Assembly (NCBI RefSeq): GCF_963921235.1
Contig: NC_086097.1
Location: forward strand, 85,934,001 to 85,998,000
Length of the DNA: 64,000 nucleotides
Source: Mobula hypostoma
Taxonomy: Eukaryota
Direction of reading: 5' to 3'
A program made the position numbers and the translations under genes. The notes under the pieces are model-generated. The model was not told where the DNA came from. It made no database searches and saw only the letters and a list, made by a program, of their open reading frames with translations. This document shows, piece by piece, positions 1,650-57,321 of this stretch (the first letter of the stretch is position 1; every line of letters begins with the position of its first letter).

Positions 1650-3438
1650 CAACACGCACAACACATTGGAGGAACTCAGCAGGTCGGGCAGCATCCATGG
1701 AAATGAACAGTCAACGTTTCGGGCTGGAACCCTTCGTCAGGACTGTAGGGGGAAGGGGCAGAGGCCCTATAAAGAAGGTGGGGGGAGGGTGGGAAGGAGA
1801 AGGTTGGTAGGTTCCAGGTGAAAAACCAGTAAGGGGAAAGATCAAGGGGTGGGGGAGGGGAAGCAGGGAGGTGATAGGCAGGAAAGGTGAAGAAGGAATA
1901 GGGGAAAGCACAATGGATAGTAGAAGGAGGCAGAACCATGAGGGAGGTGATAGGCAGCTGGAGGAGGGGGCAGAGTGAAACTAGGATGAGGAAGGGAGGA
2001 GGAGGGAATTACCGGAAGTTGGAGAATTCAATGTTCATGCCAAGGGGCTGGAGACTACCCAGACAGTATATGAGGTGTTGCTCCTCCAACCTGAGTTTAG
2101 CCTCATCATGGCAGTAGAGACGGCCATGTATGGACATATCCGAATGGGAATGTGAAGCAGAGTTGAAGTGGGTGGCAACCGTGAGACCCTGTCTGTTGTG
2201 GTGGATGGGGCGGAGGTGCTCGAAGAAGCGGTCCCCCAATCTGCGTCGGGTCTCACTGATGTAGAGGAGGCTGCACTGGGAGCACCGGATGCAATAGATG
2301 ACCCCAACAGACTCACAAGTGAAGTGTTGCCTCACCTGGAAGGACTGTTTGAGGCCCTGAATAGTGGCAAGAGAGGAGGTGTAGGGACAGGTGTAGCACT
2401 TATGCTTGCAGGGATAAGTGCCGGATTGGAGATCCGTGGAGAGGGACGTGTGGATCAGGGAGTCGCAGAGGGAACAATCCCTGCGGAAAGCAGAGAGGGG
2501 TAGAGTGGGAAAGATGTGTTTAGTTGTAGGGTCCTGTTGAGGGTGGCAGAAGTTGCGGAGGATAATGTGCTGGATCTGGAGGCTGGTGGGGTGGTTGGTG
2601 AGGACAAGGGGAACTCTGTCCCTGTTGTGGTGACGGGAGGACGGCGTGAGGGCGGAAGTGTGGGAAACGGAGGAGATGTGGGTGAGGGCATCATTGATGA
2701 CAGCAGAAGGGAAACTATGATCCTTAAAGAAAGAGGACATTTGAGATGTCCTGGAATGGAAAGCCTTATCCTGGGAGCAGATGCGGTGGAGATGGAGGAA
2801 CTGGGAATAGGGAATAGCATTTTTGCATGTGGCAGGGTGGGAAGCGGTTTAGTCGGGGTAGTTATGAGAGTCAGTGGGCTTATAGAAGATGTCAATGGAC
2901 AGTCTATCTCCAGAGATGGAGACCGAGAGATTGAGAAAGGGGAGAGAAGTGTCTGAGATGGACCAAGTGTATTTGAGGGCTGGGTGGAAGTTAGAAGCAA
3001 AGTTGATGAAATTGATGAGCTCAGCATGGGTGCAGGAAGCAGCACCAATGTAGTCATCAATGTAGCGAAGGAAAAGTTGGGGAGCAGTACTAGTATAGGT
3101 TTGGAGCATAGACTGTTCCACATAACCAACGAAGAGGCAGGCATAGTTGGGGACAATGTGAGTGCCCATAGCTACACCCTTGGTCTGAAGAAATTGGGAA
3201 GAGCCAAAAGAGAAGTTATTAAGTGTGAGTACCAGTTCCGCCAACAGGAGGAGGGTGGTGGTGGTGGGGAACTGGTGAGGTCTATTGTCCAGAAAGTAGC
3301 GGAGGGCTTTGAGGCCTTCTTGATGGGGAATGGAAGTGTATAAGGCACCACCTGCCTTCTCCTTCCCACCCTCCCATCATCTTCTTTATCGGGCCCCTGC
3401 CCCATCCCTCTTCAGTCCTGACCCGAAACGTTGACTGA
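1650..3438 (-). mobile_element. Penelope-like element (Neptune-type RT + Cys linker + GIY-YIG), 5'-truncated, with a short inverted terminal copy at ~3346-3438
   Basis: ORFs 2849-3244 (KGVAMGT, RYIDD) and 2009-2740 (YPCKHKCYTC linker; VIYCIRC..LLYISET GIY-YIG). 3346-3438 is a + strand copy of the terminus at ~1707-1810. Confidence 0.92.
1707..1746 (-). ncRNA. Minimal type I hammerhead ribozyme (PLE terminus)
   Basis: Reverse complement reads ACAGTC-CTGACGA-AGGGTTCCAGCCC-GAAA-CGTT-GACTGT: 6-bp stem I, CUGANGA and GAAA cores, palindromic ACGU stem III, GUU cleavage triplet. Confidence 0.85.
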
Positions 3439-3699
3439 TCAAATGATCTCCGTTTAGGTACTCAAATGATCTCCGTTTAGGTAGCAATTGAGATAACCCC
3501 AATAGCTTCTGTGGTACTGAACTTGAAAAAAAAGAGTATTAGTTATTCTTCATAGAATTGACTCCTGATCAATCTCCAGGGAAGCATATTTACCGACGCC
3601 AGTCAAGGACAGGATTAACTATTGTTTTCATCAATAAGCAGTTTTAAAACTATGCAGATCTTTATAAAATTAATAAACAAGGGTTAGAATAAGTAATTC

Positions 3700-9529: not shown

Positions 9530-10069
9530 TTAATCTTTAAAGTAAAAGATGTAACAGCTGTTAAAATCATAAATGGATTAATTGTATATGAATGAACCAC
9601 GAATTTCTGCACTGAGTAGTATAATTTTAAGACGAATGATTAGAATCATTCAACAGATATTCGTAAAGTATCAATATAGAACAATGTCGGAAGTTACTAG
9701 TCTTATCACGGGAATCCATTCCAAAAATATATATTTAGGTATGTATGGTCTAACAGGTCACTAGGAATGAATGAGACACAATGAGGAGAAAAGAAATAAA
9801 TTGGAAACAGGACTAGTGGCAATATTCTGAGAAATGGCTTTGACCTCCAAATGGTCTCCTTCAATAACATGGAAGTACAAAAGGAAGACCTTATTTTTTC
9901 ATTAGCCAGCTACAGACAAAAGGACATGTCCAAAAGTAATTTTCCAAAGGAGAGCAGGAAGGTCAATCTAGTCAGGCAGAATCTGTGGAAAGAGAAACAG
10001 AGATAAGTTGCCATTCCGATCGAAGATCCTGATCTAGAACAGCTCTAGAAAATGGAGTAATTTGCTGTC

Positions 10070-10345: not shown

Positions 10346-10852
10346 AAGCCTGTTTTGAAGCTCTGATACCTGGTTTTATTTCAGATTTCCAGCTAGCACA
10401 AGATTCAGGTTTTGGCAAGTGAAATTGTTTGAGATTAACACCTCCCTAAAACTATCAATGAAATGCACCAATGAATAGTGCAAACAAGTGAGATCTGGTG
10501 ATTTATCATTGGATTTGTTGCTCTTACTCATCCCTCAGGAATGAGAGTGCTTGAATAATTGGATTTGCCTTCTTCAAGAAGAAGTGGTTTGGGGAGGGTC
10601 GGTTGCGTGTTCCCACCCGGTACAATACCTAAGCATCATAGGTGGCAATAGAACAGGGAGGGGAAGGGGCCGGATGATAGTGGAGGACCAAATCCATTAC
10701 TGAGTCTTTGACCAAACTCATCCATTGTTTGGACAACAGCCCTCAACAGAGAACACCTACACTCTTTGAAGGATGAAAGAGGGAAGCTGAAGGTTAACAT
10801 TTTGAGTCTTATGCATCAGAGACAATTACTTTTTATGTTGATTTTGCGAAGC

Positions 10853-10950
10853 AAAATACACAAAATGCTGGAAGAACTCAGCTGGTCAGGCAGCATCTAC
10901 GGAAATGGATAAAAAGTCGACGTGACGGGCCGAGACCCTTCCTCAAGATT
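10853..10950 (-). mobile_element. Solo PLE terminus with degenerate hammerhead
   Basis: ACACAAAATGCTGGAAGAACTCAGC...GTCGACGTGACGGGCCGAGACCCTTCCTCAAGA matches the PLE terminus; core bases are mutated. Confidence 0.7.
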
Positions 10951-11336
10951 GATTTTTCAACATAAGTAATGGATTGCCCTTTGTATACCCGCCCGGCTGG
11001 GTACGCGTATATTATGTACAGAATCCCTGAATGCAGCGACGAGGTTAGATGTCCAGGTCTTGGCTGACCACATCTTCAAACCAGTGGCCCTCGTACTTCT
11101 TTCGATCCTGCATCAGGTTGGATTACGTGTAGATTGCTCCAGCTCTTCCGGGTCAGGAAAACAGGGAAAACCTAAGCAACTGCCCCCACCTCTCGTCCCC
11201 AAAAAAAATCACAGCGGCGGAGCTCGTGGTGCATCCGTCGGACAAGTCCAGTCAGCGGAGTAAGGCAAACGCGAGCACACCCCACACGCCACCACACACC
11301 CAACAGGCGGCTTGTTTGTTTGCAGCTGCCAGCACC

Positions 11337-11378: not shown

Positions 11379-11855
<477 letters not shown>

Positions 11856-14314: not shown

Positions 14315-14883
14315 ATGCCGGAGCACCGCAAAAAGCAGAATTTCCTAGTGGCCAACCATTTTAATTCCAATCTCCATTCCCATTCCGGGATGTCAGTCCA
14401 CGGCCTCCTCTCCGGCCACGATGAGGCCATTCTCAGGGTGGAGGAGCAGCACTCCATATTCTGTCTGAGTAGCCTCCAACCTGATGATATGAACATCATT
14501 TTCACCAACTTTTAGTAATTTTAGCCCCTCTCCCTTCTCTCCTTCAGTTCCTTGCTCTGATTCCCCCCCCCCTTTACCTCTTCTTGCTGCCTATCACCTT
14601 TTCTGGTGCTCCTTCTTTCCTTTCTCCAAGTCCACTCTTCTCTCCCTATCAGATTCCTTCTTCTCCAGCATTCTGCCTTTTCCACCTGTCACCTTACTTC
14701 TCACTTAATCCCCCCCTCCTTCACCCGCCTGGCTCCACCTTCAAGCTTGTTTTCATTTTCGGGATTCTTCCCCCTTCCTTCCTAGTCCTGATGAAGGGTC
14801 TCGGCCCGAAATACTGACTGTTTATTCCTCTCCATAGATCCTGCCTGACCTTCTGAATTCCTCCAGCATATTGTGTGTGTTGC
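14315..14883 (+). mobile_element. PLE 3' fragment with hammerhead-like motif at 14784-14819 (cleavage-site region mutated)
   Basis: ORF VANHFNS...EEQHSIFCLSSLQP; AGTC-CTGATGA-AGGGTCTCGGCCC-GAAA-TACT-GACT. Confidence 0.85.
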
Positions 14884-16212
14884 TGAGAATGCAGAATAAA
14901 GTGTTACAGTTACAGAGTACACTGAAGACAGGCAAGAAGATGCAAGGCCTTAATGAGGTGGATTGTGAGAGCAAGAGACCATCTTACCATACTAGGGAAA
15001 CATTCAATAGTCTTATATTTGCAAATAAACTAAAATTTGATCACGGAAATTAAGCTGTTTGGAAAATGGAAGAACTGAATTGCTTTATAACACATTAATA
15101 TTTCTTCGATATTGATTTTCCCTTGTAAGAAATTATCACCTTTTAAAATACCTTGCTTCCATTTCATTTGCTCATTGTTATTTTCTTTCAATATAACTTG
15201 ATTTCTATTTACCCTGATTCTCAATTCATTTCTTTGCCTGCACTCTGTAAACTCACCTCATGTTTTTCATTGTGGCTTAATATCCATCGCAATTCACTCC
15301 AAATATTTATTGGCCGGCATCATGGGAGAACAGTCAGAGATAATGTGATATGTTTAGCATGAGAGCATCAGCAGAAATAAAAACTGGCTCTGTTGGCCAC
15401 TGAATGATAGTGCAGTTCATTTGCCAGATATTCATACTGAAATGCTGTGATCTGAAATCTCTATAAGAGTCTAATAGGTTGCACGTGCCTGTGGTGTTGG
15501 GTCAGAATGGAAACAGGATTTGGTGAAGTTAGAAAAAAAATCATACATTAGAGGACTTTCTAATGCCATAGCAAAGTTACTAGTTGATGTGGTCAGCAAG
15601 ATTTCACTAGATGGGGCTCTTGTGTCAGACAGTTCTTTCCATATAATGCTGCAGACATCTGGCAGCCTGATGTCTCCATAGACATTAGCAGAGTGAAAGA
15701 GGCTGCTGGTTTTTGTACCCTGAGGGTTGGTTTATCAGTACACCATTGATATTAGGCGCTCTTGCTATTACACTGTTATTTTCTCGCTGCAAGGCCCACC
15801 TCATGATCACTCAAAGTGGCGATACAGTTTAAAGCACAAATCGTTACAAATATTGAAACAACATCAATAGCTGGCTTTTTCATGCCATCTTCACCATGGG
15901 AAGATCTCCCAAAGCACTTCCCAGGAGAATTCTCAAACAATGTTTGATACTGAACTATACAGAGTAATCTTAGGACAGGTAGCAAAACGCTTAGTCAAAG
16001 TAATATGTACTGTAGTTTTAGTTTAGAGGTACCTGAGAGGAGATTTAAAAATGCAGACACATGAACTTAGGACACCTTAAGTGCCAATGGAGGAATAGTT
16101 TAAATTTGAGCTTGTGCAAGCAGCCAGAACCGGTGCAGCATGATTATGTGGCGTGTCAGCCGAGGTGGGGACGGGCAAGACCAGGTAAGGATTTGAAAAC
16201 GAGTGTGAATAT

Positions 16213-24085: not shown

Positions 24086-24121
24086 AGTCAACGTTTCAGG
24101 CCGAGACCCTTCGTCAAGACT
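24086..24121 (-). ncRNA. Hammerhead ribozyme copy with a core C3-to-U change (probably inactive)
   Basis: Reverse complement AGTC-TTGACGA-AGGGTCTCGGCCT-GAAA-CGTT-GACT. Confidence 0.7.
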
Positions 24122-33070: not shown

Positions 33071-33106
33071 AGTCGACGTTTCAGGCCGAGACCCTTCGTC
33101 AGGACT
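33071..33106 (-). ncRNA. Minimal type I hammerhead ribozyme, intact core, GUC site
   Basis: Reverse complement AGTC-CTGACGA-AGGGTCTCGGCCT-GAAA-CGTC-GACT. Confidence 0.87.
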
Positions 33107-34074: not shown

Positions 34075-34110
34075 AGTCCTGACGAAGGGTCTCGGCCTGA
34101 AACGTCGACT
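34075..34110 (+). ncRNA. Minimal type I hammerhead ribozyme, intact core, GUC site
   Basis: AGTC-CTGACGA-AGGGTCTCGGCCT-GAAA-CGTC-GACT. Confidence 0.87.
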
Positions 34111-36334: not shown

Positions 36335-36830
36335 GGCCAGGCTCCCAGTGTTAACTCTCTGCTCCCAATCTCACCTCTTTGACCACGGCCTTCCTCCTCT
36401 CACAACAATCTTCAAAGTAAGCTCAAGATGCAATATCTCATCTTTGAATTACGCTCATTACAGATTACATATTTTATTTTGTTTAGTAGTTTTACATAGT
36501 AAGTATTTCCAGCATCCATATTACAGTTTTCAAGCATTCTTTTCACATCCCTTTCATAATTTAACATTACGCCCCCTAGACTAATGTAATTTAGTGTTAT
36601 TGCCCTTTACTCGTTTAATCTCTCCTGCCTTATATCACATTGCAAATCTTCCCATTTGTTCTATTTTTTTTCTCCACTTATTCTTCCTCTTGAAACCATC
36701 TTATCTATTCATTCCCAGTTCTGTTGCAAAGTTGTTGCCCTGAAGCATTCCCGCTCTTTCCTCCTCCCCAGATGCTGCCCAGCCAGCTGATTATTTTCAG
36801 TAGTTTTTGTTTGTATTTCAGATTTCTGGT
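36335..36830 (+). mobile_element. Old PLE 3' fragment
   Basis: Pyrimidine-rich tail ending CAGATGCTGCCCAGCCAGCTGATTATTTTCAG, as in other PLE termini. Confidence 0.5.
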
Positions 36831-38719: not shown

Positions 38720-39145
38720 TTGAAGTACCTATCGGAGCAGCACCACATCTTCCAACCTGATAGCGCGAACAGTGATTTCTCTAACCTCTACTATTTTCTT
38801 CTCCTCCCTCCTCTCTTTTACTATTCCCCATTCTGGTTACTCTCTCAGCCCTTCTCTTCTCACCTAGCTGGCACTTACCCCTGGTTTCCCACCTCCTTCT
38901 CTTTCTTCCATTATCCACTGTCCTCTCTGATTAGATTCATTCTTCAGCCCTTGACATCTACCACCTATCACCTCCCAACCTCACTTCATCCGTCCTCCCC
39001 CATCCATGCGTGGCCCCACTCACCTGGTCTCACCTATCACCTGCCAGCTTGTACTCCTTCCTCTCCCACAATCTTTTTTGTTTTGGCTTCTGCTCCCTTC
39101 CTTTCCAATCCTGTCGAAGAGTCCAGGCCAAAACTGTTGACTGTC
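38720..39145 (+). mobile_element. PLE 3' fragment with degenerate hammerhead
   Basis: GAGCAGCACCACATCTTCCAACCTGAT...AATCCTGTCGAAGAGTCCAGGCCAAAACTGTTGACTG. Confidence 0.7.
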
Positions 39146-41080: not shown

Positions 41081-41240
41081 AACACAAGGAAATCTGCAGA
41101 TGCTGGAATTTCAAGCAACACACATAAAAAATGCTGGTGAACGCAGCAGGCCAGGCAGCATCTATAGGAAGAGATACAGTTGACGTTTCGGCCAAGACCC
41201 TTCGTCAGGACTAACTGAAAGAAGAGATAGTAAGAGATAG
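41081..41240 (-). mobile_element. Solo PLE terminus (~160 bp) with hammerhead at 41178-41212
   Basis: Reverse complement AGTC-CTGACGA-AGGGTCTTGGCC-GAAA-CGTC-AACT (core intact, one stem I mismatch). Flanked by similar TATTT..TTGTA tracts. Confidence 0.82.
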
Positions 41241-44200
41241 TATTTCTTTTTGTAGGTGGGTTCCTCACGAAAGAAGAACCAACTATGGGATATACATATG
41301 GGAGAGTATAAGAACACAAAGATGAAAATTCACTCAAGATTATCCAGGGGGAATAAGAAGGGTGACAAGTTTTCAAAACAAAATTTTTGCAGACGGACAG
41401 GGCAGTTGCAGATTGTGGAAACTGGAAGACAGAAGAAGCAACGGGTTAAGGTTATGGATTTCAGAGGAGTAAAATAAAAACAGAATTACAATAACTGAAA
41501 GGGAGAGCAGGGTCAGAAATATACAAAAAGCACAAGGGTGTGCTTACTAAAGTCTGAGCGGTCTTACATGAAACTTGTGGTTCCAGATTGGGGGAATGGA
41601 ACCAAATAAACCGCTGATATGCATGACCTATGAGGATACCAGGGAGATGAAAGTGCCCAGGAAGGGCTAAAGCAAAGTGTCAAACTTTAAACGCAAGATT
41701 TCATTTAACTCAAGATGAGGGGAAAATGTATTTTTTTGCAGTGGAATTAACTATGTCTGGGATCATGGTATGTCTTACCCAGAGCCATTGCAGTGGACAA
41801 ACATGTCAGCAGTGATGTCGTTACCTGGCGAGCCCTCAGAGATCAAAAACAACTTTTCTCAATGGATTTGGGTAACGCAGGGCTAACAAAGGATGTATAG
41901 AGATTCTAATTTGTATTGTGCTGGGGTGAATGGTTTGATGGGTATGGGCAAAATCTTAGGTTCCCAAAGAATACAATCGTATAGTTCTTGTGTTAGATTC
42001 TAGACGTGACACTATCATGTATCCCAGAGGGAATAATAGTCAGTTTTTTAGATCCAGTTACTAAGCAGCCCACAGGTATTGTTGGCCTTGGTAAATTTAC
42101 AGTTCTTTGGGATCACACACATGTGAATACTGAGAGGAGTGGTGATTCACATGAGATATTTCTTTTGCGACAGTTACAACCAAGAATTTTCCAAAGGTAG
42201 CTTCGATCATTATTGACTGTACACAGGAGAATGCTGTACAGGGAGGAAAGAGTGAAAAGGTTCACAGTGTGCCCAAGTATTATGAGAATACTTGTGGTTT
42301 CAGTACTGATGAAAATTGTTCATTATCTATTCTGCCTATGAATAATCTGTCTTTCTTGCTAAAATGCACTGGTGGGACAAACATATAGTGACAGTGGCAC
42401 TAGCTATACCAAGGAATGGAAATAATGCCATTTGGAAAGTGACAACGTAGCCACTGGAAATGTAACTTTATGCCTGGCTATTGGAGGACAAACTTTGCCT
42501 CAGCCAGCAGTAGATGTGGTAATGAAGGTGAACTTCAAGATCCAACACACTGATATGGAACATATTTCTGGGACTATGTTGTTACCAATTTGCCACCTTA
42601 CTTGACTGCAAACTGTACATTGAATTATTCAGATTTTTGGAGTAAGTTTTGGAATTGGTCATTCAAATGCATACATGGGTAACAGTAGTATCACATGCTG
42701 CTGCAATACTCATTTTATGTACGTTGATCATTGTAATGCTTAATGTATATCAATTTAGAAGTGGAAGGCTGAAGTTATGCAAAAGTTATAGGATGATGCT
42801 CTTATAAAACAGAAGAAATGATTGTATAAAGAATGTGTGAATTTGGTAAGTAAATGTTATCTGTAACTTTATACGATGTAACTGTGGTACACCTACTGGG
42901 GGTTCATGGCAGTCCTACAGGCAGTCAACAGAATGAGAGGAGGATAATAACTCTAAGATAATATCTTTGGATTAAGAGGAGGGAGATGTTGGTCAGAAAG
43001 AACTACAATCTACAAATCAGTGAACAGAAATGAGGCAAGTGCGGTGGAAGCAGACAGAACCAGAAGTCTTTGTTACTGCTATGTGGTGGCAGGAATGGAG
43101 GTGGCCATTTTGTGAGCCTGTCCTTGCAGCCGTCTTTTTGTGAACAGCTTGGTGAACTGATTCTTGCTGTGGGGTAACAATCAGAGCAGTTGAATGAGGA
43201 CACAATGAGTTTCTGCTAATGATCTGCTAAACGTGAGACCATTCTCAGGTAAGTCTTGAAGAAGGATCTCAAAATGTTGACTGTTTATTCATTTTCACAT
43301 ATGTTGCCTGATCTGCTGAGTTCCTCCAGCATTTTGTCTGTGTTCTCTCAGGTAAGGAGCTGTTTATTACATAAAATGGCAGGTTTGCAGGAACAGCCTG
43401 TGATCTGGGTCCAGCGTTTGGCTGACTTGGTTGGACTGGTTTGGACCTGTCAAAGTTGGACAGAGTAAAAGATATTACCTAGATAACAAAGCTGAAGGGA
43501 GAGCCATAAAGCAAAACTGCTTGTAGCCTTGGGCCACATCCAATGAGAAGCTGACACAGGTCAGTCAGATGACCTTGAGCCAGTGAAATTGGAACATCGT
43601 AGACTGATCTAATGAAGAAAGGAATAAGAATGCAGGATTTTAGGAGTACAAGCAGTGACAACACTCCGGAGGCCAACTGTCATGTATGTGGGTGACTCCT
43701 TGTCGGATATTCGGAGATCACATCAGGACCACAAGGAATGCCTGGCCAGCTTAAACTTTTTTTCCTGGGTAATACCTTTTATCTTCTTTGACTGTTCATG
43801 GAGGATCTGGGAAACCTAGTGGGTGTACATGCAAGTACTCAGTTGCGTAAATTCACGTGCTTGTGAACTGGGCTGATTAAGGTATTGTCGATAAATAAAG
43901 ATTTTCTGTGTGCCTAACTAGTCAATATTATTGAGGGGTGCTCCTTGTAAATGCATCTGTGCAAATATGCATTGCCCATTTAGAATTTACCAAAATGTCA
44001 TTGGCTATTGCACCTGGACTATGCAAGTACACTTGTCAGGGTGCACTATAATTTCTAGGCACCTGTCTTTGCCGAAACAGTTGTCTTTTCCAGGAAAGCT
44101 GTCTTCAGAACCGAGGGCGATTTAAGACACAAAATATGTCTGCTGTACATAACTTCAAATGACAAGATTAATGAGGGGAAACATTATAGCACAGTACTGG

Positions 44201-44399: not shown

Positions 44400-46497
44400 C
44401 ATCGCCATGGCTGTAGGAGAGATGGTGGGAAGTGGGGGGGGGGGGTCGAAGGATGACTCCAAACCAGACTGAAACACAGATGGATGAGGCCCCCTCTATT
44501 CAGCATCCTGTTAGGAAATGTGCAGTTGCTGGAGAACAAAATTGAGGATTTAAGGGCAAGGTTGCTGTATTGGAGGGAAATGAGGAATTGTTGTGTTCTA
44601 TGTTTTACTGAGACGTGGCATACTTAGAACGCACCGGACATGGCAATCAGATCTGAAGGCTTCTCGATACACAGGATGGACCGAACTGCTGACTCAGAAA
44701 GGGTAAAAGGTGGAGATGTGCCTTTCTTGATAAACTCTCTGTGGTGCTCTGATATGACAATTTTGTTGTACTCATGTTCTCCCAACCATTCTATTTGCTA
44801 AGAGAGTTCCCCACGTGATCCTGACAGCTTGATCACTTGGCTATTCTTCTCCTCTCTGCACACATGCAGGGGCCAAAGGGCAAGGCCCCAGAGATGAACG
44901 AAGAGTCTATTGCAGGACACAAGGAGCACCTACTGGATTGCTTTGAGTTGATGGACTGGGCTGTGTTCATGGACAAGTCTGTGCATCTGAATGAATACAC
45001 CATGGTAGTCACAGACATTATAAAAACAGTCGTAGACTATTGTATCCATACAAAATCATTCAGAGTCTTCCCCAAACAGAAGCCCAGGATGAACCATGGG
45101 ATCTGCAATCTGTTGAGGGCCAAATCCATGGCATTCAAGTCTGTCGAACAATAAGGTTAGAAGAAGGCCAGGTACCATATCCGGAAAGCCATCTCACAAG
45201 CCATGTAACTATTCTAGACTAAACTTGAATCAATGAAGGCTGCTGAATAGTTATGGCAGGGCTTGAATGCTGACACCTCTTACAAAGTGAAATCAACCAA
45301 TGGGTGACAATAGGTCAGCCTGAGGTACCCTCCTGCCTCAGGCAGGCGTCAATTATACCAATGCCTAAGAAGAACACAGTACCCTGCCTCAATGACTGTC
45401 ATCTAGTAGCACTTACATCCACTCTGATGAAGTGTTTTGAGAAGTTGATGATGAAACAAATCAACTTATGTCTGAGAAGTGACTTAAATCTGCTCCAATT
45501 TGCCTATTGGCACAACAGCAAATGACATTTCATTGGCTTGTCACTCAAACCTGGAACATGTGGACAGCAAAGATCCATACAGCAGGATGCTCTTTATCAC
45601 CACGGCTCAACATTCAATGTTATCATCCCCTCAAAACTAATAAATAAGCTTCAACACCTTGGCCTCAATACCTCCTTGATTTCCTCACTTGCAGACCCTA
45701 GTCACTTTGAATTGACGATAAAATCTCCTCCACAATCTCCAACAGCACAGGTACACCTCAAGGCTGTGTGCTTCGCCCCCTGTTCTACTTGATTTACACT
45801 TATGACTGTGTGGCTAAGCATAGATCCAATACCATATTTAAGTTTGCTGTTGATATCTCTGTTGTGGGTCAAATTAAAGGTGGTGACAAATCAGCATTTA
45901 GGAGGGAGATTGGGAATCTGGCTGAGTGGACCCACAACAAAAATTTCTCACTCAATGTCAGCAAGAGCAAGGAACTGATTATTGAGTTCAGGAGGAGGAA
46001 ACCCAAGGTCCATGAGCCAGTCCTCATCAGGGGATCAGGGATGGAGAATGTCAGCAACTTTAAAGTTCTCGGTGTTATCATTTCAGAGGACCTGTTCTGG
46101 GCCCAGCACATAAATACAATTATGAAGAAAGCACAGCAGCACCTCTACTTCCTCAGAAGTTTGTGAAGATTTAGCATGACATCTAAAACGTTGACAAACT
46201 CCTATAGATGTGTAGTCTATACATTGTGGAGATTACATTGACTGACTGCATCACAGCCTGGAATGGAAACACCAATGCCCTTGAACAGAAAATCCTACAA
46301 AAAGTAGTGGATACAGCCCAGGCTGTCATGAGTAAAGCCCTCCCCATCACTGAGCACATCTACACGGAGCGTTGTCACAGGCAAGCAGCATCCATCGTCA
46401 GGGACCTTTACTGCTTGTGTCATGCTCTCTTCTCACTGCTGCCATCAGGAACATGATACAGCAGCCTCAGGACTCACATCACAGGGTTCAGGAACAA
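44400..46497 (+). mobile_element. Rex1/Babar LINE, decayed EN through RT
   Basis: PPLFSILLGNVQLLENKIEDLRARLLYWREMRNCCVLCFTETW; CLNDCHLVALTSTLMKCFEKL; FKVLGVIISEDL. Confidence 0.88.
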
Positions 46498-47420
46498 GTC
46501 GAGGTTGTCGGGACAATATGTGCACCGCATTTCCCTTGGAAACATTGGATCGTGTAACGGGAGGGAGAGTTTAAAAAATCGAGCTGGGGCAGCCGGGACA
46601 TTCTGACCACAACAGTTCCTTTGGAGACTTTGGAATGTGCAGCAGGAAAGAGTGTTCAAAAGAAGTGACCAGGGTTAGTTGAGACATTCCGCTCATCACA
46701 GTTCACTTGGAGACATTGGATTTTCTGATTAGGCAATAAAAAAAAATATCACTGTTAAGCAGAAAGTCCATTGTTTGAGCAGCCATTATGAGTGGGCCCC
46801 TGTTAGAGTGGGGAATTCAGGCTTTGCTCATAGAGGATTCAGCGAGGACAGGCAGAGGCTGCAGATGGATTTTTTTTGTTGCACAGTTAGAGATGTGGGG
46901 ATGCCATGCAGGATAGTGGAATGCTCCTCTAGCAGGATGGGAGAAGGCAGAGACCTCCAGTGCCTTTGTTGACTACACCAGCAAGAAGTGCATCCAGCTG
47001 CAGACCATGTTAAGGAATTGGAGCTGGGTGAATTCTGGATCATGTGGGAGGCTGAGAAGTTGATTGACAGGCATACAGAGAGGTAGTTACACCCAAGGTG
47101 CAGGACACAGGTAACTGGGTGACCATCAGGAAGGGGAAAGGGGATGGACAGTCAGTGCAGAATATCCCTCAATAACAGGGATACCGCTTTAGAGACTGAT
47201 GGGGAGGGGGATGACCTCACAGAGGAAAGCCACAGCTGTCAGTTAGACTGCATTTATTTCAATGCACATTGATTCATGGGTAAGGGGGTGAAGTCAGAGC
47301 ATGGCTTGGCTCTGAGGATTGAGATGTTATAGATATAACAGAAACGTGGCTTAGAGAAGGGTAGGACTTGCAGGTCAATATTCCAGGTGTGATAGAAGTA
47401 CAAGTAAACAAGAGGGGGTA

Positions 47421-48996
47421 ACGCACACAAAATGCTGGAGGAACTCAGCAGGTCAGGCAGCATCTATGGAAATGAATAAACAGTCGACGTTAACACCGGA
47501 AAGGTAGGGGGAAGATGCCAGAATAAAAAGGTAAGGGGGAGGGGAAGGAGGATAGGTAGAAAGTGATAGGTGAAGCAAGTTGTGTGGGAAGGGTAAGAGG
47601 ATGGAGGAGAAGGAATCTGATAGGAGAGGAGAGTGGACTATGGGAGAAAGTGAAGAAAGAGGGCCACCGGGGGAGGTGAGGAGAAGAGGTAAAAGGCCAG
47701 AGTAGAGAATAGAAAAAGAGACAAGGGGAGGGGAATAAAGAAATTACTGGAAGTTGGAGAAATCGAAGTTAATGCCAGCAGGTTGGAGGCTGCCTGGATA
47801 GAATACAAGGGATTTCTTCTCCTCCCTGAGAGTGGTTAATGTGCTACCGAAGATGAGCGACAACTTACTGGTGGTTCCCAAAGCAAGAAATACAACTAAA
47901 TGCTTTATTAATAACACTTTTTCTGCAAAATATTATGGTAATCGATCACCGCAGATGATGAAGAGGCAAGTGAAGGCGAGGCTTACTCGAGGGTCAAAGT
48001 TGGATTGAGGTCAAGGCATGTTTGAAGCGCATGGTCAGAGGGAGGCTATGAGATGGAGTCAGGGTGTGTGAAGTGGAGAAAAGTCAGAGTGGAAGAGTTT
48101 TGGAACTTGTCCACCTAAACTGAGAGCAAGGTCTGATCAATCTAAGTGCCTGGCCGATTTGAAATGGTCGGATATGGGCCGAAACGTGGCAGCCAGAGCA
48201 TGTCATTGCTACAGGGCCTGGGTCTTGGGCCGAGGAACGACTCAATGTTTGGACAATTTAAACACTCGGCAGGATGGATTGAAAAGGCAGGGAGTCAGGA
48301 CCAGGGGTGAGGGTCGGGTGAGGTGAGGGAACGTTTGCTCTGCGCTTCACTGCACTGAGACTGAGGCTGTGGGCCTGCTCAGGGATTCATGTCTGAGGGC
48401 TCTGTGACACTTTGCTCCGCAGTGTGATAAACAGAGCCTGAGGCTGTAGGCCTACTCTGGATGCTTCGGGCCTCATTTCTATGAACTTACTTTCATTTTG
48501 AATGCTGTTGCTAGGTTTTATTGTTTTTCTCTCTCTGCGCTTTGGGTATTTGTTGGTCTTTTATTTTAATGGGCTTATCTTTTTTTAATTTATTGTGATA
48601 CAACACAGAATAGGCCTTTCCTGCCCTTCAAACCACACCACCCAGCAATCCCCTGATTTAATCCTAGCCTAATCATGGGACAATTTACAATGACCAATTG
48701 ATCTACTAACCGGTGTGCCTTTGGACTGTGGGAGGAAAGTGGAGCACTCAGAGGAAACCCAGAGGTCACAGGGAGAACAGGCAGTGGTGGTTCTTTTGTG
48801 TTTCTTGTTTTGTGGCTGTCAGTAAGGAGTCGCATCTCAAGGTTGTATAATGCACTTTGACAATAAATGTACTTTGAATCATCATGGCAGAAGAGAAGGC
48901 CATGGATTGACATGTCGGAATTGGAATGGGGATAGGAATTAAAATGGTTGGCCACCGGGATCTGCTTTTGGTGGATCGAGTGGAGGTTTCAGAGGA
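47421..48996 (-). mobile_element. PLE 3' fragment inserted in the CR1, itself interrupted
   Basis: TSD AGAGGGGGTA at 47411-47420 and 49000-49009. PLE sequence CCTGAGAGTGG (~47835) resumes as CATCATGGCAG (~48880). Confidence 0.82.
47836..48879 (+). mobile_element. Non-coding LINE-derived element containing a minus-strand V-SINE (~48590-48785)
   Basis: Tail GACAATAAATGTACTTTGAA; internal TTTGGACTGTGGGAGGAAAGTGGAGCACTCAGAGGAAACCC is an inverted V-domain. Confidence 0.6.
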
Positions 48997-49180
48997 ACGA
49001 GAGGGGGTATTGCCTTCTTGATGAGGGAGGGTGTGATAACAGTACTTAGAAATGATATTGTTGGAGATCGTGCATTGAAGCTAAGTGGGTAGAACTTAGG
49101 AACAGTAGGGCAAGTGTCACTATAATGGGATTGTATTATAAAATCCCCTAATAGCTATCAAGAAGATGAGTAGCAGGTGG

Positions 49181-52100
49181 TGTTACGTACCCCGTAACTG
49201 GGTTGCCAAACCAGCAGAAATGGATTACTCAGTTGGAGTCTGGATTACTGGAACTAAGAAAGTTTTATTAAAGAAACAAGCAACACAGTACTCTAATCAA
49301 AAGGATAATAAATGCAACAGTTCAGCAGTGATAAACACACATGTACACAGAATTAAGATAACAGGATCAATCAAGCTCTATCGTTGCCTAGGGGTAAATG
49401 ACCAGTTTCAAAGTGACGCAAAGTTCAGTTCAATTTAGTTCAGTTCAGTTCGCAGTAATCGCTGCCGTGGCGATGGACAGTGGGGGGAAGGAGAGAGAGA
49501 GCAAAACGAAAGAATATTCAAACGGCTTCCACACAGACCTTCGCAGTCAGCTTTCGTGCGAGTCCTTTGTGATGTCATCTGAGGTCACCGACCGTGACCC
49601 CTCCGTTTCCAGATACGATCGTTTCCCTGTGGTGAACCTGGCACCCAGGCAAGGGTGGACACACACCAGGTTCCCGCCGATCGTGCCTTTCCACCCTGTG
49701 CGTCTATGGCCTGGTCCCGCAACCGGCCTTCCAAAACTTCCCACCGACTTGTGAGAGATGCACTGCTTCCAGGGTCTTGTTACCTCGGGTGTCGTGTGTG
49801 TCCTGCCTTAGCGAACCTGTCCCTTTTTATCCCCCTGCTGGGGTATCGCCTGTCCATCACTTCAAACAGTTCAGGGTTCAAAGGGGGAGCCGATCTTGAC
49901 AGCTCTCTCCTTCTGTTACTCTCTCCCGTCCCTTCATTACACATCTCCAAATGCTGCTCCATTGTTTTCCTTATCTCTCTGTCTCCTGAAGACAGGTGGC
50001 AGACCAACTGCTGATCCCACTGGTGCCAGCCCAAGACAGCTAACATCTTTATCTATTGGTATTCTTGTCACACTTCCCCCCTTTAAGGATTTTTACCGGG
50101 GTAAAAACTACAAACATGAATACATTATTTGATACACACAAATACACATCTTTATCAGCTGTTTGGCTTATACAGCGAATTTGAAGTTGTCAGCACCTTG
50201 ACAGACAGTCAGTAATCACATTTTCCGTTCCTTTTATATGTGTTATTAGTAATCCCTTAGACCAGGCTCCAACTTAGCATACTTCATAGTGGCCAAAAAC
50301 ACTGATGAATTGCGATCAATGTAACCTCTCATTGGGTTTCATCCCGGACCACAATAACAAGGGTCGTCCCATTCCGACTTAGTTTTCTCTCGCAAGGGCT
50401 TAGTAGAGGGGGAGGGGTAATAACCGCAGAGTTATTGCAAAACTTACTACAGTACCCCACCATCTCCAAGAGCCTTCTGAGGGCCCTCTTGTCTGTCGGG
50501 GTTGGGATGTCAGAGATAGCCCGCACTTTAGCTTGCAACGCTGCCAGCTGCCCCTGTGTCACCACAATTCCCAGGTAAGTGACCTTCGTGTGGCCGAACT
50601 CATTTTTTTCAGGGTTCACTATCAAGCTGGCTTCAGACAGTCGTATTACATTGCCAATACACACCTTTGTGTTCGTCAGCCCTTTTGTCACTGAATTACT
50701 CATTCTATATGGAATGTTGCTCGCTAGACCACCCAACGTCCCAGTTCTTTGCATCGCCTCGGGAGAATCAAACACACGTGTGCGAGTTGTTTAATTACTT
50801 CTCCTAAAGAGTCGCTTTGTTCAGGGATTAAGGGAGAGACCTTATCAGCAGCGCTGGCCAAAACAATAGCCTTCTCCCATCTGGTCGATACCATACTCAT
50901 CTTTTCAAAATGGTTTTTTTCTCTTATCAGGGGGACCCTAGCTTCATTGATTTCCGCGCTAACACCGACTAGGTTTATTAGCATATCAAAAGCCTGTGAC
51001 CATCTCAGTTCGCGTCGGCCATAATCAATAACATCCTTCCTCCGGTGCAGCTGGGAAACCTCTTTCATGATTCCACCAATTGTTCCCTCCAGTACCGCAA
51101 AATGTCCACCGGGGGGTACCTTGTGGGCCAGGTTAAAAACCTCATCCCCATAACTCTTTTGCACCACCCCCTATTCCTCATCTGCGGGTACGGTACTTGG
51201 TCTCCCTTTCTTCCTTAGCACTTCTTTCTCCACACAATAGCCTACTAGTTCCCTTGTTAAGTCTGTGTCAGAGAGAGCTGTCTCCGCCCAAACCATCAGC
51301 CCCTCATCTCGCTCCCGCGCCTACACAAATTCTTTCCTGGCTAATGCTAAGTCTGTCTCAGCTCCCTCACTACCTCTTGTTTCACTACACTCCTTCTTTT
51401 CACTTTCTACCCCCTTCTCGTACAAGGTTGGCAGAAACGTCTCAGCTAAATTTACTACCGCAATCCCGTGATGAACCTGTGAGCCCATGGGCGGGGCCTC
51501 AATGCTGGCAGGCTGACCTGTCAATCTCACGGCTGGGAACACGATTCCCCCGGCGAGGTCATTACCGAGCAAGACTTCCACGCCTTTCATGGGTAATTTG
51601 GACCTCACCCCGATCGTGACTAGTCCAGAGACCAGGTTGCTTTGTAAGTGTATCTGGTGCAAAGGGACGGCCTCTGTCCCTTCCCCAATACCTTTGACCT
51701 TGACCTCCCCAGTCTGGGTCTCTGAGCTAAACGCTAATACACTCTTCAGTATTAGTGACTGACACGCTCCCGTGTCTCTCCAGATCCGCACTGGAACTGG
51801 TTTTAACCCCTCTTCACTGACACCAATCCGGCCGAGATAAACCTCTCACGCCCTTCCTGAACTTTGGCAGACCTTTCCTCTCCTAGCAGTTCGTTTACCA
51901 GTCAAAATCGCCATTTTTCCTTTTCCCGTCTCCTTCTTTGGGGCAAAGCACCTGGACGCAAAGTGTCCGACTTTCCCGCAATTATACCAGACGACCCCAG
52001 GAGACTTCCTACCAGACTGCTCCCGGTCTACCTTATCCTTCTCACTAGTCCCCGGCTTACTTACTGACTTTTCTGGCGGACTCTCCTCGCCTCCCTGACT

Positions 52101-54093
52101 ACCCTTCTGGTAGTCTTTACTCGGGGCAAACTTCATTTTATGTGTCAACGCATACTCATCCGCTAACTTAGCAGTTGCGGCTAACGTGGCTGCCTCTTTC
52201 TCATCTAGGTAGGGTCTCATACCCTCAGGGACACAACCTTTAAACTGCTCAATCAGGATCAGCTGTAGCAGTCTGTCATAATCCCCCTCTACCCCCTTCG
52301 AGGCGCACCAACGCTCACAATATGTCTGCATCTCAGGGGCAAACTCTAAATACGTGCGGTCCCACTGCTTCCTCGCATTCCGGAACCTCTGCCGGTATGC
52401 CTCCGGGACCAACTCATAAATCCTGAGGATGGCCTCTTTCACTACCTCGTACCTCTGGGCATCTTCCGCGGACAAAGCTGAGTAAGCTTGTTGGGCTTTC
52501 CCTTTCAGTACACTCTGAAGCAAAACAGCCCACTTATCCCTCGGCCAGTCCTGACTTGTAGCAACTTTTTCGAAATGGAGAAAGTACCGATCCACGTCGG
52601 TATCGTCAAATGGGGGAACCAGCCTAACCTCCTGGGTCACCCGGAACCCTCCACCTTGGTTCGGCACGGGCTCCTGCTCGGCCCTTATCTTTAACTTCTC
52701 CAGCTCAAATTCCCTTTCCCTCTGCCTCTCTCTCTCTTCTCACTCCCATTGCCTCTCTTTCTCTTCTCTCTCCAACTGTTTCTCTCTCTCTCTCTCTCTC
52801 TCCTGCCTTTCTAACTCTCTCTCTTTCTCCCGTCTTTCTAACTGCTTCTCTTCGTGTTCTAACTGCCGTACCCGGAACTCGTGCTCGAGTCTCAGTTTTT
52901 CAAGCTGCACCTGTACCGTGTCTCCAGCAGGTTTTTCAATAGACACCACCTCCAGCTCGCCTTGGGGAAACACACCTTTAGATACATAGTGCTCTATGAT
53001 AGCTCTGTGTATCTCCTCTCTCCTCATTGTCGACTTCCCCTTAGCAAGATTCAACCGTTTGGCCACAGCTACCAATTCCGATTTCCTGGCATCCTCGAAT
53101 GCCTCCAAGGTCGGCGCCTTTATAATTTCCTCAGCCTCCATTTCTGCTGTTTGTCTTTTCTTTCTTTCGGGAATTTTGACCCAATCAATTTACTCCGTCC
53201 CAAATTTAGCATTCAAAATCGCGGACGAGAACCCACTTATGTTACGTACCCCATAACTGGGTTGCCAAACCAGCAGAAATGGATCACTCAGTTGGAGTCT
53301 GGATTACTGGAACTAAGAAAGTTTTATTAAAGAAACAAGCAACAGAGTACTCTAATCAAAAGGATAATAAATGCAACAATTCAGCAGTGATAAACACACA
53401 TGTACACAGAATTAAGATAACAGGATCAATCAAGCTCTATCGTTGTCTAGGGGTAAATGACCAGTTTCAAAGTGACGCAAAGTTCAGCTCAATTTAGTTC
53501 AGTTCAGTTCGCAGTAATCGCTGCCATGGCGATGGACAGTGGGGGGAAGGAGAGAGAGAGTAAAACGAATGAATATTCAAAACGGCTTCCACACAGACCT
53601 TCGCAGTCAGCTTTTGGGCGAGTCCTTTGTGATGTCATCTGAGGTCACCGACCGTGACCCCTCCGTTTCCAGATACGATCGTTTCCCTGCGGTGAACCTG
53701 GCGCCCAGGCAAGGGTGGACACACACCAGGTTCCCGCCAATCATGCCTTTCAAAACTTCCCACCGACTTGTGAGAGACGCACCGCTTCCAGGGTCTCGTT
53801 ACCTCGGGTGTCGTGTGTGTCCTGCCTTAGCGAACCTGTCCCTTTTTATCCCCCTGCTGGGGTATCGCCTGTCCATCACTTCAAACAGTTCAGGATTCAA
53901 AGGGGGAGCCGATCTTGACAGCTCTCTCCTTCTGTTACTCTCTCTCCCGTCCCTTCATTACACATCTCCAAATGCTGCTCCATTGTTTTCCTTATCTCTG
54001 TGTCTCCTGAAGACAGGTGGCAGACCAACTGCTGATCACACTGGTGCCAGCCCAAGACAGCTAACATCTTTATCTATGTGTATTCTTATCACA
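49181..54093 (-). mobile_element. Gmr1-like Gypsy LTR retrotransposon with SCAN-related Gag and internally deleted pol
   Basis: LTRs 53240-54093 (5') and 49181-50072 (3'), TG..CA, GTGG TSD. PBS TGGGTTCTCGTCCGCGAT (tRNA-Pro-like) at 53218-53235; PPT at 50073-50084. Gag (ELVPEAYRQRFR..LILIEQF, CGKVGHFASRC), protease RDTGA, integrase His remnant (AHKVPPGGHF) upstream of the RT remnant (VTYLGIVV..IPTPTDKRALRRLLEMVGY). Confidence 0.95.
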
Positions 54094-55709
54094 GTGGGTA
54101 CAGAAATTGCTCATAATTTTAAGAACGATAGGGTTGTATTTGCAGGAGATTTCAACTTTGTAGTCATTGATTGGGCCAGACAGTATTATGATGGACTGGA
54201 ATTTGTGAAATACGTCTTAGAAAGTTTCCTGCAGCAATATATAGACTCTGGAGGGTGCAATACTGGTCTTTCTCCTGAGGAGCGAGGCAGGGCAAGTAAC
54301 TGACATATCAGTCAGTGAGCTTTGTGTCTAATAAGCACTCTTCTGTTAATTTTAGGATGGCGATGGAAAAGGTTAGGACAGATCCACAGGTCAGGACCTT
54401 AAACTGGAGCAGGGCCAATGTTAGGGAAATTAGGCAGGAGGTTCATTCAGTGAGCCTGTGTGAAGGGAAAGGAATGGCAATGAGAGGCTTTTTTAAGAGG
54501 GATAATATGAGTCCAGTGGCAGCAAGTTCCTATAAGGGTGAAGGGTAAACCTGGCAAGTTTAGGGAATCCTGGCTAACGAGGGATATTGAGGTTTTAGTT
54601 AACAAAAAATAGGAAGTGTACATTAGGAGGTTGGGGTTGAAATGGTGACTATAAAAAATTTAAGAATGCTCTTAGGAGGGAATCAGGAGGGCAAAGAGAG
54701 AGTATAAGATAGATCTGGCAGGGAAGGTTAAGGAAAATTCCAAGAGGTTATGTAGATTAAGAGTAAAAGGATTGCTGGTGGACAGAGCAGTTAGAATTAA
54801 CAGGGCCACCTATGTCTCAGAACACAGGAGAGGAGTGGGATATATAAAAAATATTTCTCCTTGGTGTTTACTGAGTATTAAGGTTGATAAATCCCTTTGG
54901 TCTGACAGAATGCGTCCTTGGACTCTGTGGGAGGCCAGAGAACAAATTGTAGAGGACCTTGTGAAGATGCTTGCTTCCTTGTTAGCCCGGTGAAGCACAA
55001 TGACGACTTGCGGGTAACAATCAAAAAATTACTCTATTAATCACACACTTTCAAGAATACGATCACTGCAGTCATTAGCCGGTAACTCCTCTTTTGGAGT
55101 TGAGCTTTTGAACCGCCTGTTTGAACTGGCATTTTTGTGGTGTGACCCGAAGCCTCAAAGGTGCAGGATGGTTGTGGCATGGCGTGTACGGGCCAGATTG
55201 ATGGTGCTTGGCCTGGGCCCGTGAGTGGGGAATATGCCAATGTTTGGCTGTTGCTGGAGTAGACTTGGAGATGATTCATTGTGGTAGAACCAAGGCAAGA
55301 CGAATGGAGCCAATGCAGAGTTCAGGCAGCAAGGGCTAGGCCCGAGAGTGAGGAAAGACCCAGGGTTTGTTTGATTTAGGAACCAGGCTGAATTGGAAAG
55401 GTCAGCTATGGGCCGAATTGAGGCGGTGGAGCGTGGACCCGAGAGCATATCGAAGTGGCTGGGCCCAGGCCAGATAGTGAAGAAGGATTTAAGGTTTGAT
55501 TGATTTAAGCGCCGGGCCAGATTGAAAAGGTCAGGGTGTCGGGGCCAGAGGCAAAGTATAGGACGGGTGTTCGGCTTGCTGCTCTACAAGATTTACTCAT
55601 CTCTGTGCTGAACTGAGGCTATGGCCTGAAAATAAAGGGCTTCTGGATCAGCCGCAGTGATGGCTGGCTTTGTGGCTGTGGACTCACTTTCGTGAACTTC
55701 AGTTCTGAA

Positions 55710-57321
55710 CTAGACAATGGGGTGACCCGTTGGGGCACCCTTTGAGAGAAGGGTAGTGCAGTCTGATGTGACCAGAATAAACGTTAGTCCTGACGAAGGG
55801 TCTCAGCCTGAAACGTCGACTGTACCTCTTCCTAGAGATGCTGCCTGGCCTGCTGCGTTCACCAGCAACTCTGATGTGTGTTGGTTAAATTTTCCTGAAT
55901 GCTATTGCTATCTCTTTGATTTGGAAATTAAAGAAGAAAAACTCAGATTATTAAAGAAGAAAGACGCATAGCAAGACAAATATGTGACCAGAATGAACAT
56001 TAAATATCCATGAAGTAAATTTGAAGGAATCGAGCTTGCTGGGTTGGGTCTGGAATTAAATGTCCGATGTAATAATGGATTTGGCCTTGAATAATCACAG
56101 AAGGATTCCATCGATTCCTAGTTGGAATGACTTCTTTGGCACCAAAGGATGTCATTTGGAAGAGGCAATTATATTGTCTGATGTTCTTCCTGAACTCGTT
56201 TGCAATAGGTTCATCATTGCTGTACAAATTGAGGAGTTCGTTAGGTAGAGGCTGCAAATTGCCTATCCTGACCATTCCCTTCATACAGCAGAAATGTGTG
56301 GTTTCTCCGGTGAATAGGAAGGCACGACAGAGAGGGCATACTCTCGTCATCCAACCAACATCAGCAGAAATGTGATGGCATGTGAGTTGTGCATCTTGCT
56401 TTGCTCTTTCTCTGTCGAAGTACTGTCGTCGAAAGCGGCCGTTGTCATCTTCAGCAACTCACGCAATAATTACTCTGTGCCACATATTCTCGAGTTGATC
56501 TTTCCTTTTCTCCTCTGTCTCTTCCTCTCTCCTCCTTCTCTGCCTGTTTTTGTTTTTCTGGAGACGTGCAGCCCTTTCATCCTTCGTCTCTTCATCTCTT
56601 CATCTCTTCTACCATTTGTTCTTTCTCTCTGATCCTAGAGTCGTGCAGCCCTGGTCTGATCGGATTCTTGTTCTCTCCTCAGTCTGTGCCTATTGTTGTC
56701 ATTTTGGAGACATGCATGCCTGTCCTCCTCTGTCTCGTCTTCTTTCATCTTTTTTGTCCTGACTCTTTGATCCTGGAGCCATGCAGCCCTGGCCTCATCC
56801 GATTGTTGTTCTCTCCCTCTCCTTGCCACTTCCCGACAGCATTTGGCATCATCTCTTGACCATAATGCCCCTCTTCTCTTTCCACGCGGCATAATTAGGC
56901 TATCCATATATTTTTACCCTAATGCTTGATAGAAGATAGGAAGCAATAACACCAAAGCCTCCAAGCTGCTGAGGCTGGCCGTGCGCATGCATCGTGGTGT
57001 GGCATCGCGGTCTCCATGGAAGGTGGAAGCGGCTCTGTGAGCATCGTGAGGCATTGCTGAGGCTGACCGCGCGCATGCGTCGGGCTGTGGCGTCGTGGTC
57101 TCCGTGATAGCCGATCGGGTCTCGGGTGAAAGGCAGCCTGTTGATTTTTGGCGAATGAGCAACTTTATACGGATATATAGCCCTGAACTTTGCCTGCATT
57201 CTGTAAGTTGGCACATTTTAATTCGATTTAGCCAAAAAAAGTGCCGCTGTAATGCACCGTTTGCGCTAATTGGATGTCACAAACAGACAGACAAAGCATG
57301 AGAGTTTTGGTAGTATATAGA
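55710..57321 (-). mobile_element. Non-autonomous Helitron with both termini and a RepHel N-terminal remnant
   Basis: Minus strand: A|TCTATATACTA 5' end; GGGTGCCCCAACGGGTCACCC hairpin then CTAG|T 3' end. ORF 56000-56350 (CPLCRAFLFTGET..CCMKG..FRKNIRQYNCLFQMTSFGA..IQGQIHYYIG..FLQIYF) is a typical Helitron Rep N-terminal region. Confidence 0.92.
55786..55821 (+). ncRNA. Minimal type I hammerhead ribozyme inside the Helitron
   Basis: AGTC-CTGACGA-AGGGTCTCAGCCT-GAAA-CGTC-GACT, followed by PLE terminal sequence to ~55885. Confidence 0.85.

Follow-up and report, generated by a model that had tools for sequence, protein, structure and literature searches.

The window analysed here comprises 64,000 nt of the forward strand of Mobula hypostoma contig NC_086097.1 (positions 85,934,001 to 85,998,000), and it contains 19 copies of a 36-nt minimal type I hammerhead motif. 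In our reading, to which we give a probability of roughly 80%, these copies are 5'-truncated or inverted pieces of the 3' end-repeat of a Penelope-like element (PLE) that carries an already known minimal hammerhead, and they are likely inert when scattered as they are here.

Hammerhead motifs in the window

The 36-nt pattern given in the initial annotation of the window occurred at 7 sites with up to 3 mismatches, and at none in 100 shuffles. An nhmmer profile trained on 9 window copies, which match it by construction, returned 26 rows at E ≤ 10, of which 19 fell below E 0.05, and the best match in the reversed window had an E-value of only 4.3. BLAST and alignment recovered a copy at all 14 coordinates listed in the annotation, and the profile added five more (10030(-), 31950(-), 36764(+), 59700(+) and 61150(-)), which gives the total of 19 per 64 kb. 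A pairing descriptor that requires the core, stem I, stem II and A15.1/U16.1 passed five copies (1709-, 26542+, 33071-, 34075+ and 55786+) and nothing in 10 shuffles, and in these five the core CUGANGA...GAAA...UH is complete together with both stems. The recurrence of the motif is therefore borne out by pattern, profile and descriptor, all of them above their shuffled or reversed controls. An Rfam scan of the window found no hammerhead family at E ≤ 1, none of the Rfam models picking up the motif. The list of copies with an intact core stands for these five but not for 41178(-), which retains the core letters, has damaged stems I and II (the base at 11.1 is lost and G1.1 is changed to A) and failed the descriptor. 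An exact-pattern scan of metagenome contigs with the ray motif yielded no match.

In all five intact copies, stem III is the bare and loopless palindrome ACGU, as originally described, and an unpaired A lies between positions 9 and 10.1. In folding calculations, the register with this unpaired A is better than an A-U register by 1.4-4 kcal/mol; for the young subfamily, an A10.1-U11.1 register was considered and rejected, as it is 1.4 kcal/mol worse than the G-U register. The older subfamily has G10.1-C11.1 (1709, 10915 and 14784); in the young subfamily, all five window copies that retain the position show G10.1-U11.1, which lies at a CpG. In sequencing contigs, U11.1 accounts for about 76-81% of the aligned depth, with a reference that itself bears U. 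The copies at 1709 and 26542 carry U17 (GUU) instead of C17. Both natural variants named earlier are present, GAAATACT at 14784 and C3U at 24086; C3U is also found at 10915 and 43253. Its site is not a CpG, the three copies with it (of 19) belong to two subfamilies, and the G8A partner change is absent from them. The stability z-scores of five 35-36-nt motifs and of the tail are unremarkable (-0.1 to -1.6).

The carrier element

The long copies share the order reverse transcriptase (RT) C-terminus, CKRNKCYTC linker, GIY-YIG domain, pyrimidine-rich pseudo-long terminal repeat (pLTR) of about 300 nt, 36-nt motif and tail, and the tail is either short (about 65 nt) or long (about 100 nt), a difference of about 35 nt. 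In the three insertions termed elements A, B and C, the motif lies in the pLTR about 300 nt past the end of the open reading frame (ORF). The GIY-YIG domain (PF01541) scored 23.5 bits against a Pfam cut-off of 22.6. The RT ORF has 568 relatives, which bear PF00078 and PF01541; the best is a Mobula hypostoma protein with 94% identity, the best relatives come from ray and shark, and the CX2-5CxxC linker, seen here as CKRNKCYTC, is conserved in an alignment. We call the element a putative Neptune-type PLE, because a C-terminal GIY-YIG domain and this linker mark the Neptune and Nematis clades (PMC8557442), and because in vertebrates only Neptune and Poseidon have been reported (bioRxiv 10.64898/2026.07.22.740005); the choice of Neptune over Nematis would rest on the linker and on this reported distribution. 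The carrier with its RT and GIY-YIG domains and the features of the motif thus agree with the initial assignment as PLE-derived minimal type I hammerheads of the dimer type.

PLE-derived sequence makes up about 8.4 kb, or 13% of the window. Each of elements A, B and C consists of two arms in head-to-head inversion, which are 96-99% identical and have their 3' ends facing outward. When 14 insertions were scored for target-site duplications (TSDs) against 400 random pairs, four reached a score of at least 8 (13 bp, 11 bp, 8 bp, and 15 bp with 2 mismatches) and 10 had no convincing TSD; two of the random pairs reached 8 and none reached 10. One contig from a second organism (organism B; depth 3.5) follows the left flank of element C up to 32963 and then continues with 488 letters unlike the element. 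This is likely the empty site of element C, and the insertion would therefore be recent. Recent activity of the family, in line with the claim of a young one, is supported by this likely empty site, by arms of 96-98% identity and by the perfect 13-bp TSD. No element in the window carries two motifs on the same strand, and there is no head-to-tail motif array among the 15 tandem-repeat rows of the window.

Conservation and covariation of the fold

Related loci, namely 80 of 535 confirmed metagenome stretches and 7 from genome contigs, were searched for the core alone to avoid circularity. These 87 loci gave 47 matches, compared with 2-7 in shuffles, and the matches had a palindromic stem III (ACGU or AUAU) in 38 cases, the extra A in 43, all three stem II pairs in 40 and all four stem I pairs in 19. 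Among 27 distinct motifs, stem I paired with its own partner in 16 (swapped partners: mean 2.3, maximum 9) and stem II in 21 (mean 7.9, maximum 13), counts that were never reached in 2000 partner swaps. An alignment of 13 sequences, which were picked from descriptor matches and are thus biased toward pairing, showed 51 both-side changes, a number found in 0 of 500 shuffles. Among the 9 distinct window copies, however, both-side changes occurred in 2 of 12 pairs, which was equalled by 143 of 500 shuffles; the expected covariation of stems I and II holds across related families and does not exceed shuffles within the window. The stem I letters AGUC/GACU do not covary between the ray subfamilies.

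In six young copies, 5 of 6 motif substitutions are at CpG, the GUU and AAC variants being of that kind, and the motif is variable at 6 of 36 positions versus 15 of 64 in the tail, which is about the same rate. Between subfamilies, the motif is 0.83-0.86 identical (two best-kept old copies), compared with 0.52-0.54 for the upstream pLTR and about 0.7 for the tail and the endonuclease, and all catalytic core letters are kept. Because the related marine elements share the architecture and their covariation of stems I and II is strong, the fold is selected at the family level in source elements, and the inserted copies decay, mostly at CpG.

One of the related loci (L026) is complete, with a pLTR on either side of the ORF; its two motifs flank the ORF on the same strand, at a distance of 3152 nt from each other. 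In another (L050:310-400), the 5' hammerhead lies within the first codons of a long ORF, and the same frame is open through the ray motif and tail; none of 40 proteins of at least 790 aa from full-length relatives begins with a motif-encoded peptide. L081-L087 are eukaryotic PLEs in contigs of two bacterial metagenome-assembled genomes, most likely through host contamination.

Activity of the scattered copies

The copies in the window are probably not active as ribozymes. The minimum free energy (MFE) structure of the single motif is an inactive rod, in which core positions G5-G8 pair with the strand of stem III and the cut site. Cleavage would likely occur only as a double hammerhead, or with the element protein, in the transcript of a full-length element; in the active fold, two motifs would swap their stem I strands and share a 4-bp ACGU helix, and a pLTR-ORF-pLTR transcript could supply both. 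For insertion, the element protein would nick both strands about 8-15 bp apart, reverse transcription may be primed downstream of the motif, at either of two sites, as reported for the element of the anole, and copying would read through the uncut motif and then stop early. Once inserted, the copies would decay, mainly at CpG.

The window also contains exon 1 of the host gene TTC9A (from 11382; 98% to Mobula birostris). Because TTC9A exons 2-3 are absent from the window, the 15 later copies presumably lie in intron 1, which would be more than 52 kb long and filled with repeats. With 8 copies in sense and 7 in antisense orientation, there is no sign of selection against the cutting strand. The initial proposal of an active self-processing module at this location is unsupported, because there are no tandem copies and the intron strands are balanced; within elements no same-strand tandem is seen, the copies show CpG decay, and the covariation in the window does not exceed that of shuffles.

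Several points weigh against our reading. The window is without a full-length element, so that no tandem ray element was seen. The double-hammerhead fold has a predicted energy of -8.9 to -14.1 kcal/mol, compared with a cofold MFE of -23 to -28 kcal/mol, and two separate monomers (-17 to -21 kcal/mol) are also better; these ViennaRNA energies, which omit the non-canonical contacts of the core, argue against easy dimer formation. In the anole element, the motif cleaves only with the protein, and insertion does not need cleavage (PMC11167929). Among natural Xenopus retrozyme dimers, 8 of 9 did not cleave (bioRxiv 10.64898/2026.07.22.740005). Finally, one and the same pre-mRNA carries three of the intact copies in sense orientation, and an encounter between them is conceivable in principle.

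Start points of the copies

The 5' ends could be defined by TSD, BLAST and eye in 17 copies, after two very decayed copies had been dropped. Six of the 17 begin within -3 to +11 of the first base of stem I, and none begins at the cut site (+33). The binomial tails are 7e-6 with an exponential null and 6e-5 with a uniform null over the last 200 nt, corrected for 13 windows; the interval was set once the data had been inspected. At 33105, 221 and 225 contigs from DNA runs of two organisms depart from the reference into long, AT-rich sequence of low agreement, and at 33106, 590 and 548 contigs depart into pLTR of the older type. The cut site does not figure in the departure rows listed, and diverged copies also tend to stop aligning at the motif edge. 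The summed contig depth is 1.4e7 on the motif and 20 on the flank, which is no measure of copy number or expression, and the motif-to-pLTR depth ratio is higher in runs guessed to be RNA, which again does not measure expression. In a few contigs, the 5' edge of the motif is joined to its 3' end (a step of 35 nt) or the strand changes at 33105. Elsewhere in the genome, motif pairs in tandem and inversions at the 33102-33106 edge thus exist at low depth.

Because copies begin at the stem I edge and none at the cut site, the shared boundary suggests uncleaved templates with an RNA 5' end at this position and run-off copying, which is the explanation that we prefer. A more specific version is put forward only tentatively, with the odds rather against it: the outer edge of the hammerhead would be the 5' end of the element RNA, with the start at the A of an initiator-like YYAGUCC, the copies of about 100 nt would be run-off cDNAs primed at the 5'-proximal copy of the internal RT start, and the ribozyme would lie within the first 36 nt of the mRNA. 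If so, cutting would remove the cap rather than free a template. The 5' ends of PLE RNA would be recorded across the genome as a very large fossil map, which would show that templates are uncleaved, and a subfamily would have amplified after the loss of G10.1-C11.1. One invertebrate Neptune-type family (L010, L022, L029, L030, L042, L054, L074, L075 and L079) has CCAAT and TATAWA elements. TATAWA is found at -37 to -39 from C3 in 10 of 35 distinct upstream regions, all from this family, where it would, as a hint only, place the start site just before stem I; the other related families are without TATAWA there, and in the ray copies there is no more than a weak AT-rich patch.

We do not favour a 3' splice site at AG/UCCUGA as the cause of the boundary. 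The ray sequence fits such a site, and D. virilis has an intron whose end falls at helix I (PMC4209133; PMC2377424), but the entire pLTR is pyrimidine-rich, the AG is missing at this position in most related families, and no splice-type joint in an RNA run was seen among the 15 of 74 joints listed. A template-switch hot spot is not favoured over an RNA 5' end either. We did not find a boundary at the stem I edge described in the literature searched, which comprised open-licence papers.

Alternative readings

In the ray lineage, the motif could have been retained mainly as a protein-binding or promoter/splice landmark, with catalysis now dispensable. This would agree with G10.1-U11.1 in all young window copies that keep the position and in most of the contig depth, when 19 of 20 palindromic motifs of related elements have G-C, and with the missing covariation of stem I between ray subfamilies; moreover, hammerhead mutants had no effect on insertion in vitro (PMC11167929), and Naiads thrive without the motif (PMC8557442). 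However, the catalytic core letters were all kept while the upstream pLTR fell to about 0.5 identity, G-U still pairs, and natural hammerheads depart at 10.1-11.1, where even U-U occurs (PMC3088659). We therefore regard the landmark function as improbable, though it fares best among the alternatives.

Somewhat less probable still is that the copies of about 100 nt form a separate SINE-like (short interspersed element) or retrozyme-like family with source loci of its own. The 5' boundary shared by six copies, two of them with abutting TSDs, speaks for such a family, as do tandem motif-motif joints (33106 back to 33072) in 3, 2 and 1 contigs, but short copies derive from both the old and the young subfamily and match their long counterparts, the window has no tandem motif array, and no tRNA-like or other head precedes the motif.

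It is very unlikely that the intact copies work as ribozymes, each pairing with a second copy to cleave RNA of the host or of the element (e.g., 26542, 34075 and 55786 on TTC9A pre-mRNA): five copies do keep every core letter and stem, the family is so abundant (147,364 matching contigs in run X1) that partners would be plentiful in nuclear RNA, and the motif is present in RNA-guessed runs, but the intron has no strand bias, the distance between sense copies is 7.5-22 kb, for two of them an arm of 96-98% complementarity lies within 0.7-2.2 kb and would be the first to pair, the decay is CpG-like, the dimer fold is unfavoured, and published minimal motifs cleave poorly even as dimers (PMC4209133).

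Features of the window

Table 1. PLE copies, hammerhead motifs and host exon in the window, numbered from its first letter. EN, endonuclease; new, absent from the initial annotation; a slash within letters marks the boundary of a copy.
Position	Strand	Feature	Details
1648-3437	both	Element A, older-subfamily PLE, head-to-head inverted	Long arm (RT C-terminus, zinc linker, GIY-YIG, pLTR, hammerhead, tail) on -; short arm 3355-3437 on +; no TSD found
1709-1744	-	Intact minimal hammerhead	G10.1-C11.1, U17, 6-bp stem I
3414-3436	+	Hammerhead with stem II deleted	
9969-10030	-	Very decayed hammerhead/tail copy	New; nhmmer E 5.6e-4
10846-10948	-	Short copy beginning at stem I (TC/core)	C3U; GAAA changed to GTCA; 8-bp TSD 10838-10845 and 10949-10956
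11382-11793	+	Host gene TTC9A exon 1	Donor GT at 11794
14332-14884	+	5'-truncated older copy (EN end, pLTR, hammerhead, tail)	
14784-14819	+	Hammerhead of the 14332-14884 copy	Broken stem III ATAC
23290-23385	-	Short decayed copy beginning at C3	Stem II 3' strand and GAAA deleted; long tail
23988-26640	both	Element B, young subfamily, head-to-head inverted	Left arm 23988-24988 on -, long tail; right arm 24986-26640 on +, short tail; perfect 13-bp TSD 23975-23987 and 26640-26652
24086-24121	-	Hammerhead of element B	C3U, U17, G10.1-U11.1
25130-26240	+	5'-truncated PLE ORF	RT motif (YIDD), thumb, CKRNKCYTC linker, GIY-YIG; one in-frame stop
26542-26577	+	Intact minimal hammerhead	U17, G10.1-U11.1
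31884-32030	-	Short decayed copy	New; hammerhead 5' half partly duplicated; long tail
32967-34173	both	Element C, young subfamily, head-to-head inverted	Left arm to 33928 on -; right arm 33933-34174 on +; probable TSD of 15 bp with 2 mismatches, flank locally duplicated
33071-33106	-	Intact minimal hammerhead	C17, G10.1-U11.1; predicted cut after C17 (33075)
34075-34110	+	Intact minimal hammerhead	Same sequence as 33071
36764-36810	+	Very decayed tail fragment	New; nhmmer E 0.004
38740-39144	+	Older pLTR copy	Ends just past decayed hammerhead (39107-39143)
41081-41238	-	Short young-type copy	Hammerhead 41178-41212 with core letters, damaged stems I/II
43254-43345	+	Short copy beginning at stem I (AG/TC)	C3U; stem II deletion; perfect 11-bp TSD 43243-43253 and 43346-43356
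47419-47835	-	Older copy (EN end, pLTR, tail)	Hammerhead mostly deleted
55781-55884	+	Short young copy beginning 3 nt before stem I	Intact hammerhead 55786-55821
59452-59822	+	Very old pLTR copy	New; decayed hammerhead
61098-61191	-	Short decayed copy beginning inside core	New

The copies at 3414-3437 and 39107-39144 have no tail and end 1-2 nt past the 3' strand of stem I. Outside the PLE copies, a long terminal repeat (LTR) retrotransposon-like unit at about 49180-54093 has two repeats of about 900 bp that are 97-98% identical, lie 4.06 kb apart and start with TGTTAC, and its minus-strand ORF pieces contain SCAN and zinc-knuckle domains; we take it to resemble SCAN-bearing Gypsy (Gmr1-like) elements. 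A 152-aa ORF at 56000-56458 (-), without a Pfam match, presumably corresponds to the N-terminal part of a Helitron Rep-helicase, judging from its motifs. ORF fragments of the long interspersed element (LINE) type at 39-893(-), 19967-20521(+), 27059-27933(-) and 45711-46166(+) have motifs that we assume to be CR1/L2/Rex-like and L1/Tx1-like, and the three pieces scanned had no Pfam match.

Comparison with known systems

Minimal hammerheads of metazoan PLEs are known from Xena, Poseidon and Neptune of fish, from coelacanth and from Xenopus (Cervera and de la Pena, 2014, PMC4209133). Their described hallmarks are a nucleotide between 9 and 10.1, a G10.1-C11.1 pair, a palindromic 15.2-16.2, mostly solo copies and opposite-strand pairs, with no activity as monomer and low activity as dimer (PMC4209133). 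The ray motif shares the type I form, the stem I of 4-5 bp, the unpaired base 9/10.1, the loopless palindromic stem III and the location in the pLTR, and it occurs likewise mostly in solo truncated copies with opposite-strand pairs nearby. It differs by a stem II of 4 bp instead of the 7-8 bp given for Schistosoma (PMC4209133), by G10.1-U11.1 in the young subfamily, by its density in the window, and by its host, as two of the three supplement files of PMC4209133 contain no shark or skate term, where the third may bear on this. The extra A, which had been singled out as worth testing, is not novel; it is a published hallmark (PMC4209133), and the great majority of the core-only matches in relatives have it too.

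With the endonuclease-bearing PLEs of the Neptune clade (Arkhipova, 2006, as summarised in PMC8557442), the ray element shares the C-terminal GIY-YIG domain, the CX2-5CxxC linker, 5' truncation, an adjoining inverted copy, an optional tail of 30-40 bp and TSDs of about 8-13 bp; it differs in that the window has no full-length copy. An inverted arrangement of pLTRs has also been described, together with TSDs of 9-10 bp and a 31-bp tail that is optional (PMC3846280). In the Poseidon element PAc of the green anole (Frangieh et al., 2024, PMC11167929), the tail is defined by two internal start sites of reverse transcription. PAc and the ray element agree in having two 3' ends, roughly 90 and 125 nt past stem II and separated by the length of a tail, in insertions that keep the uncut motif and in strands that are both extendable, although PAc belongs to a different clade and the ray element is known here from sequence alone. 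Non-LTR retrozymes (Cervera and de la Pena, 2020; Li et al., 2026, preprint) likewise have a PLE-related type I hammerhead in non-coding copies, but they form head-to-tail arrays with a motif per unit, of which the window has none.

In conclusion, earlier publications already describe the extra A and the palindromic ACGU as well as the inverted layout and the optional tail, and as a hammerhead class that is already known, the finding matters little. The only unusual points left are that the shortest copies begin at the outer edge of the motif and that the young subfamily has G10.1-U11.1. The role of the hammerhead in endonuclease-bearing PLEs is, however, still called unclear (PMC8557442), and a ray family with very many copies is a natural data set in this respect, as the starts and ends of the copies tell which RNA was copied. 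The old (G-C) and young (G-U) subfamilies are, moreover, a natural pair for asking whether amplification needs cleavage.

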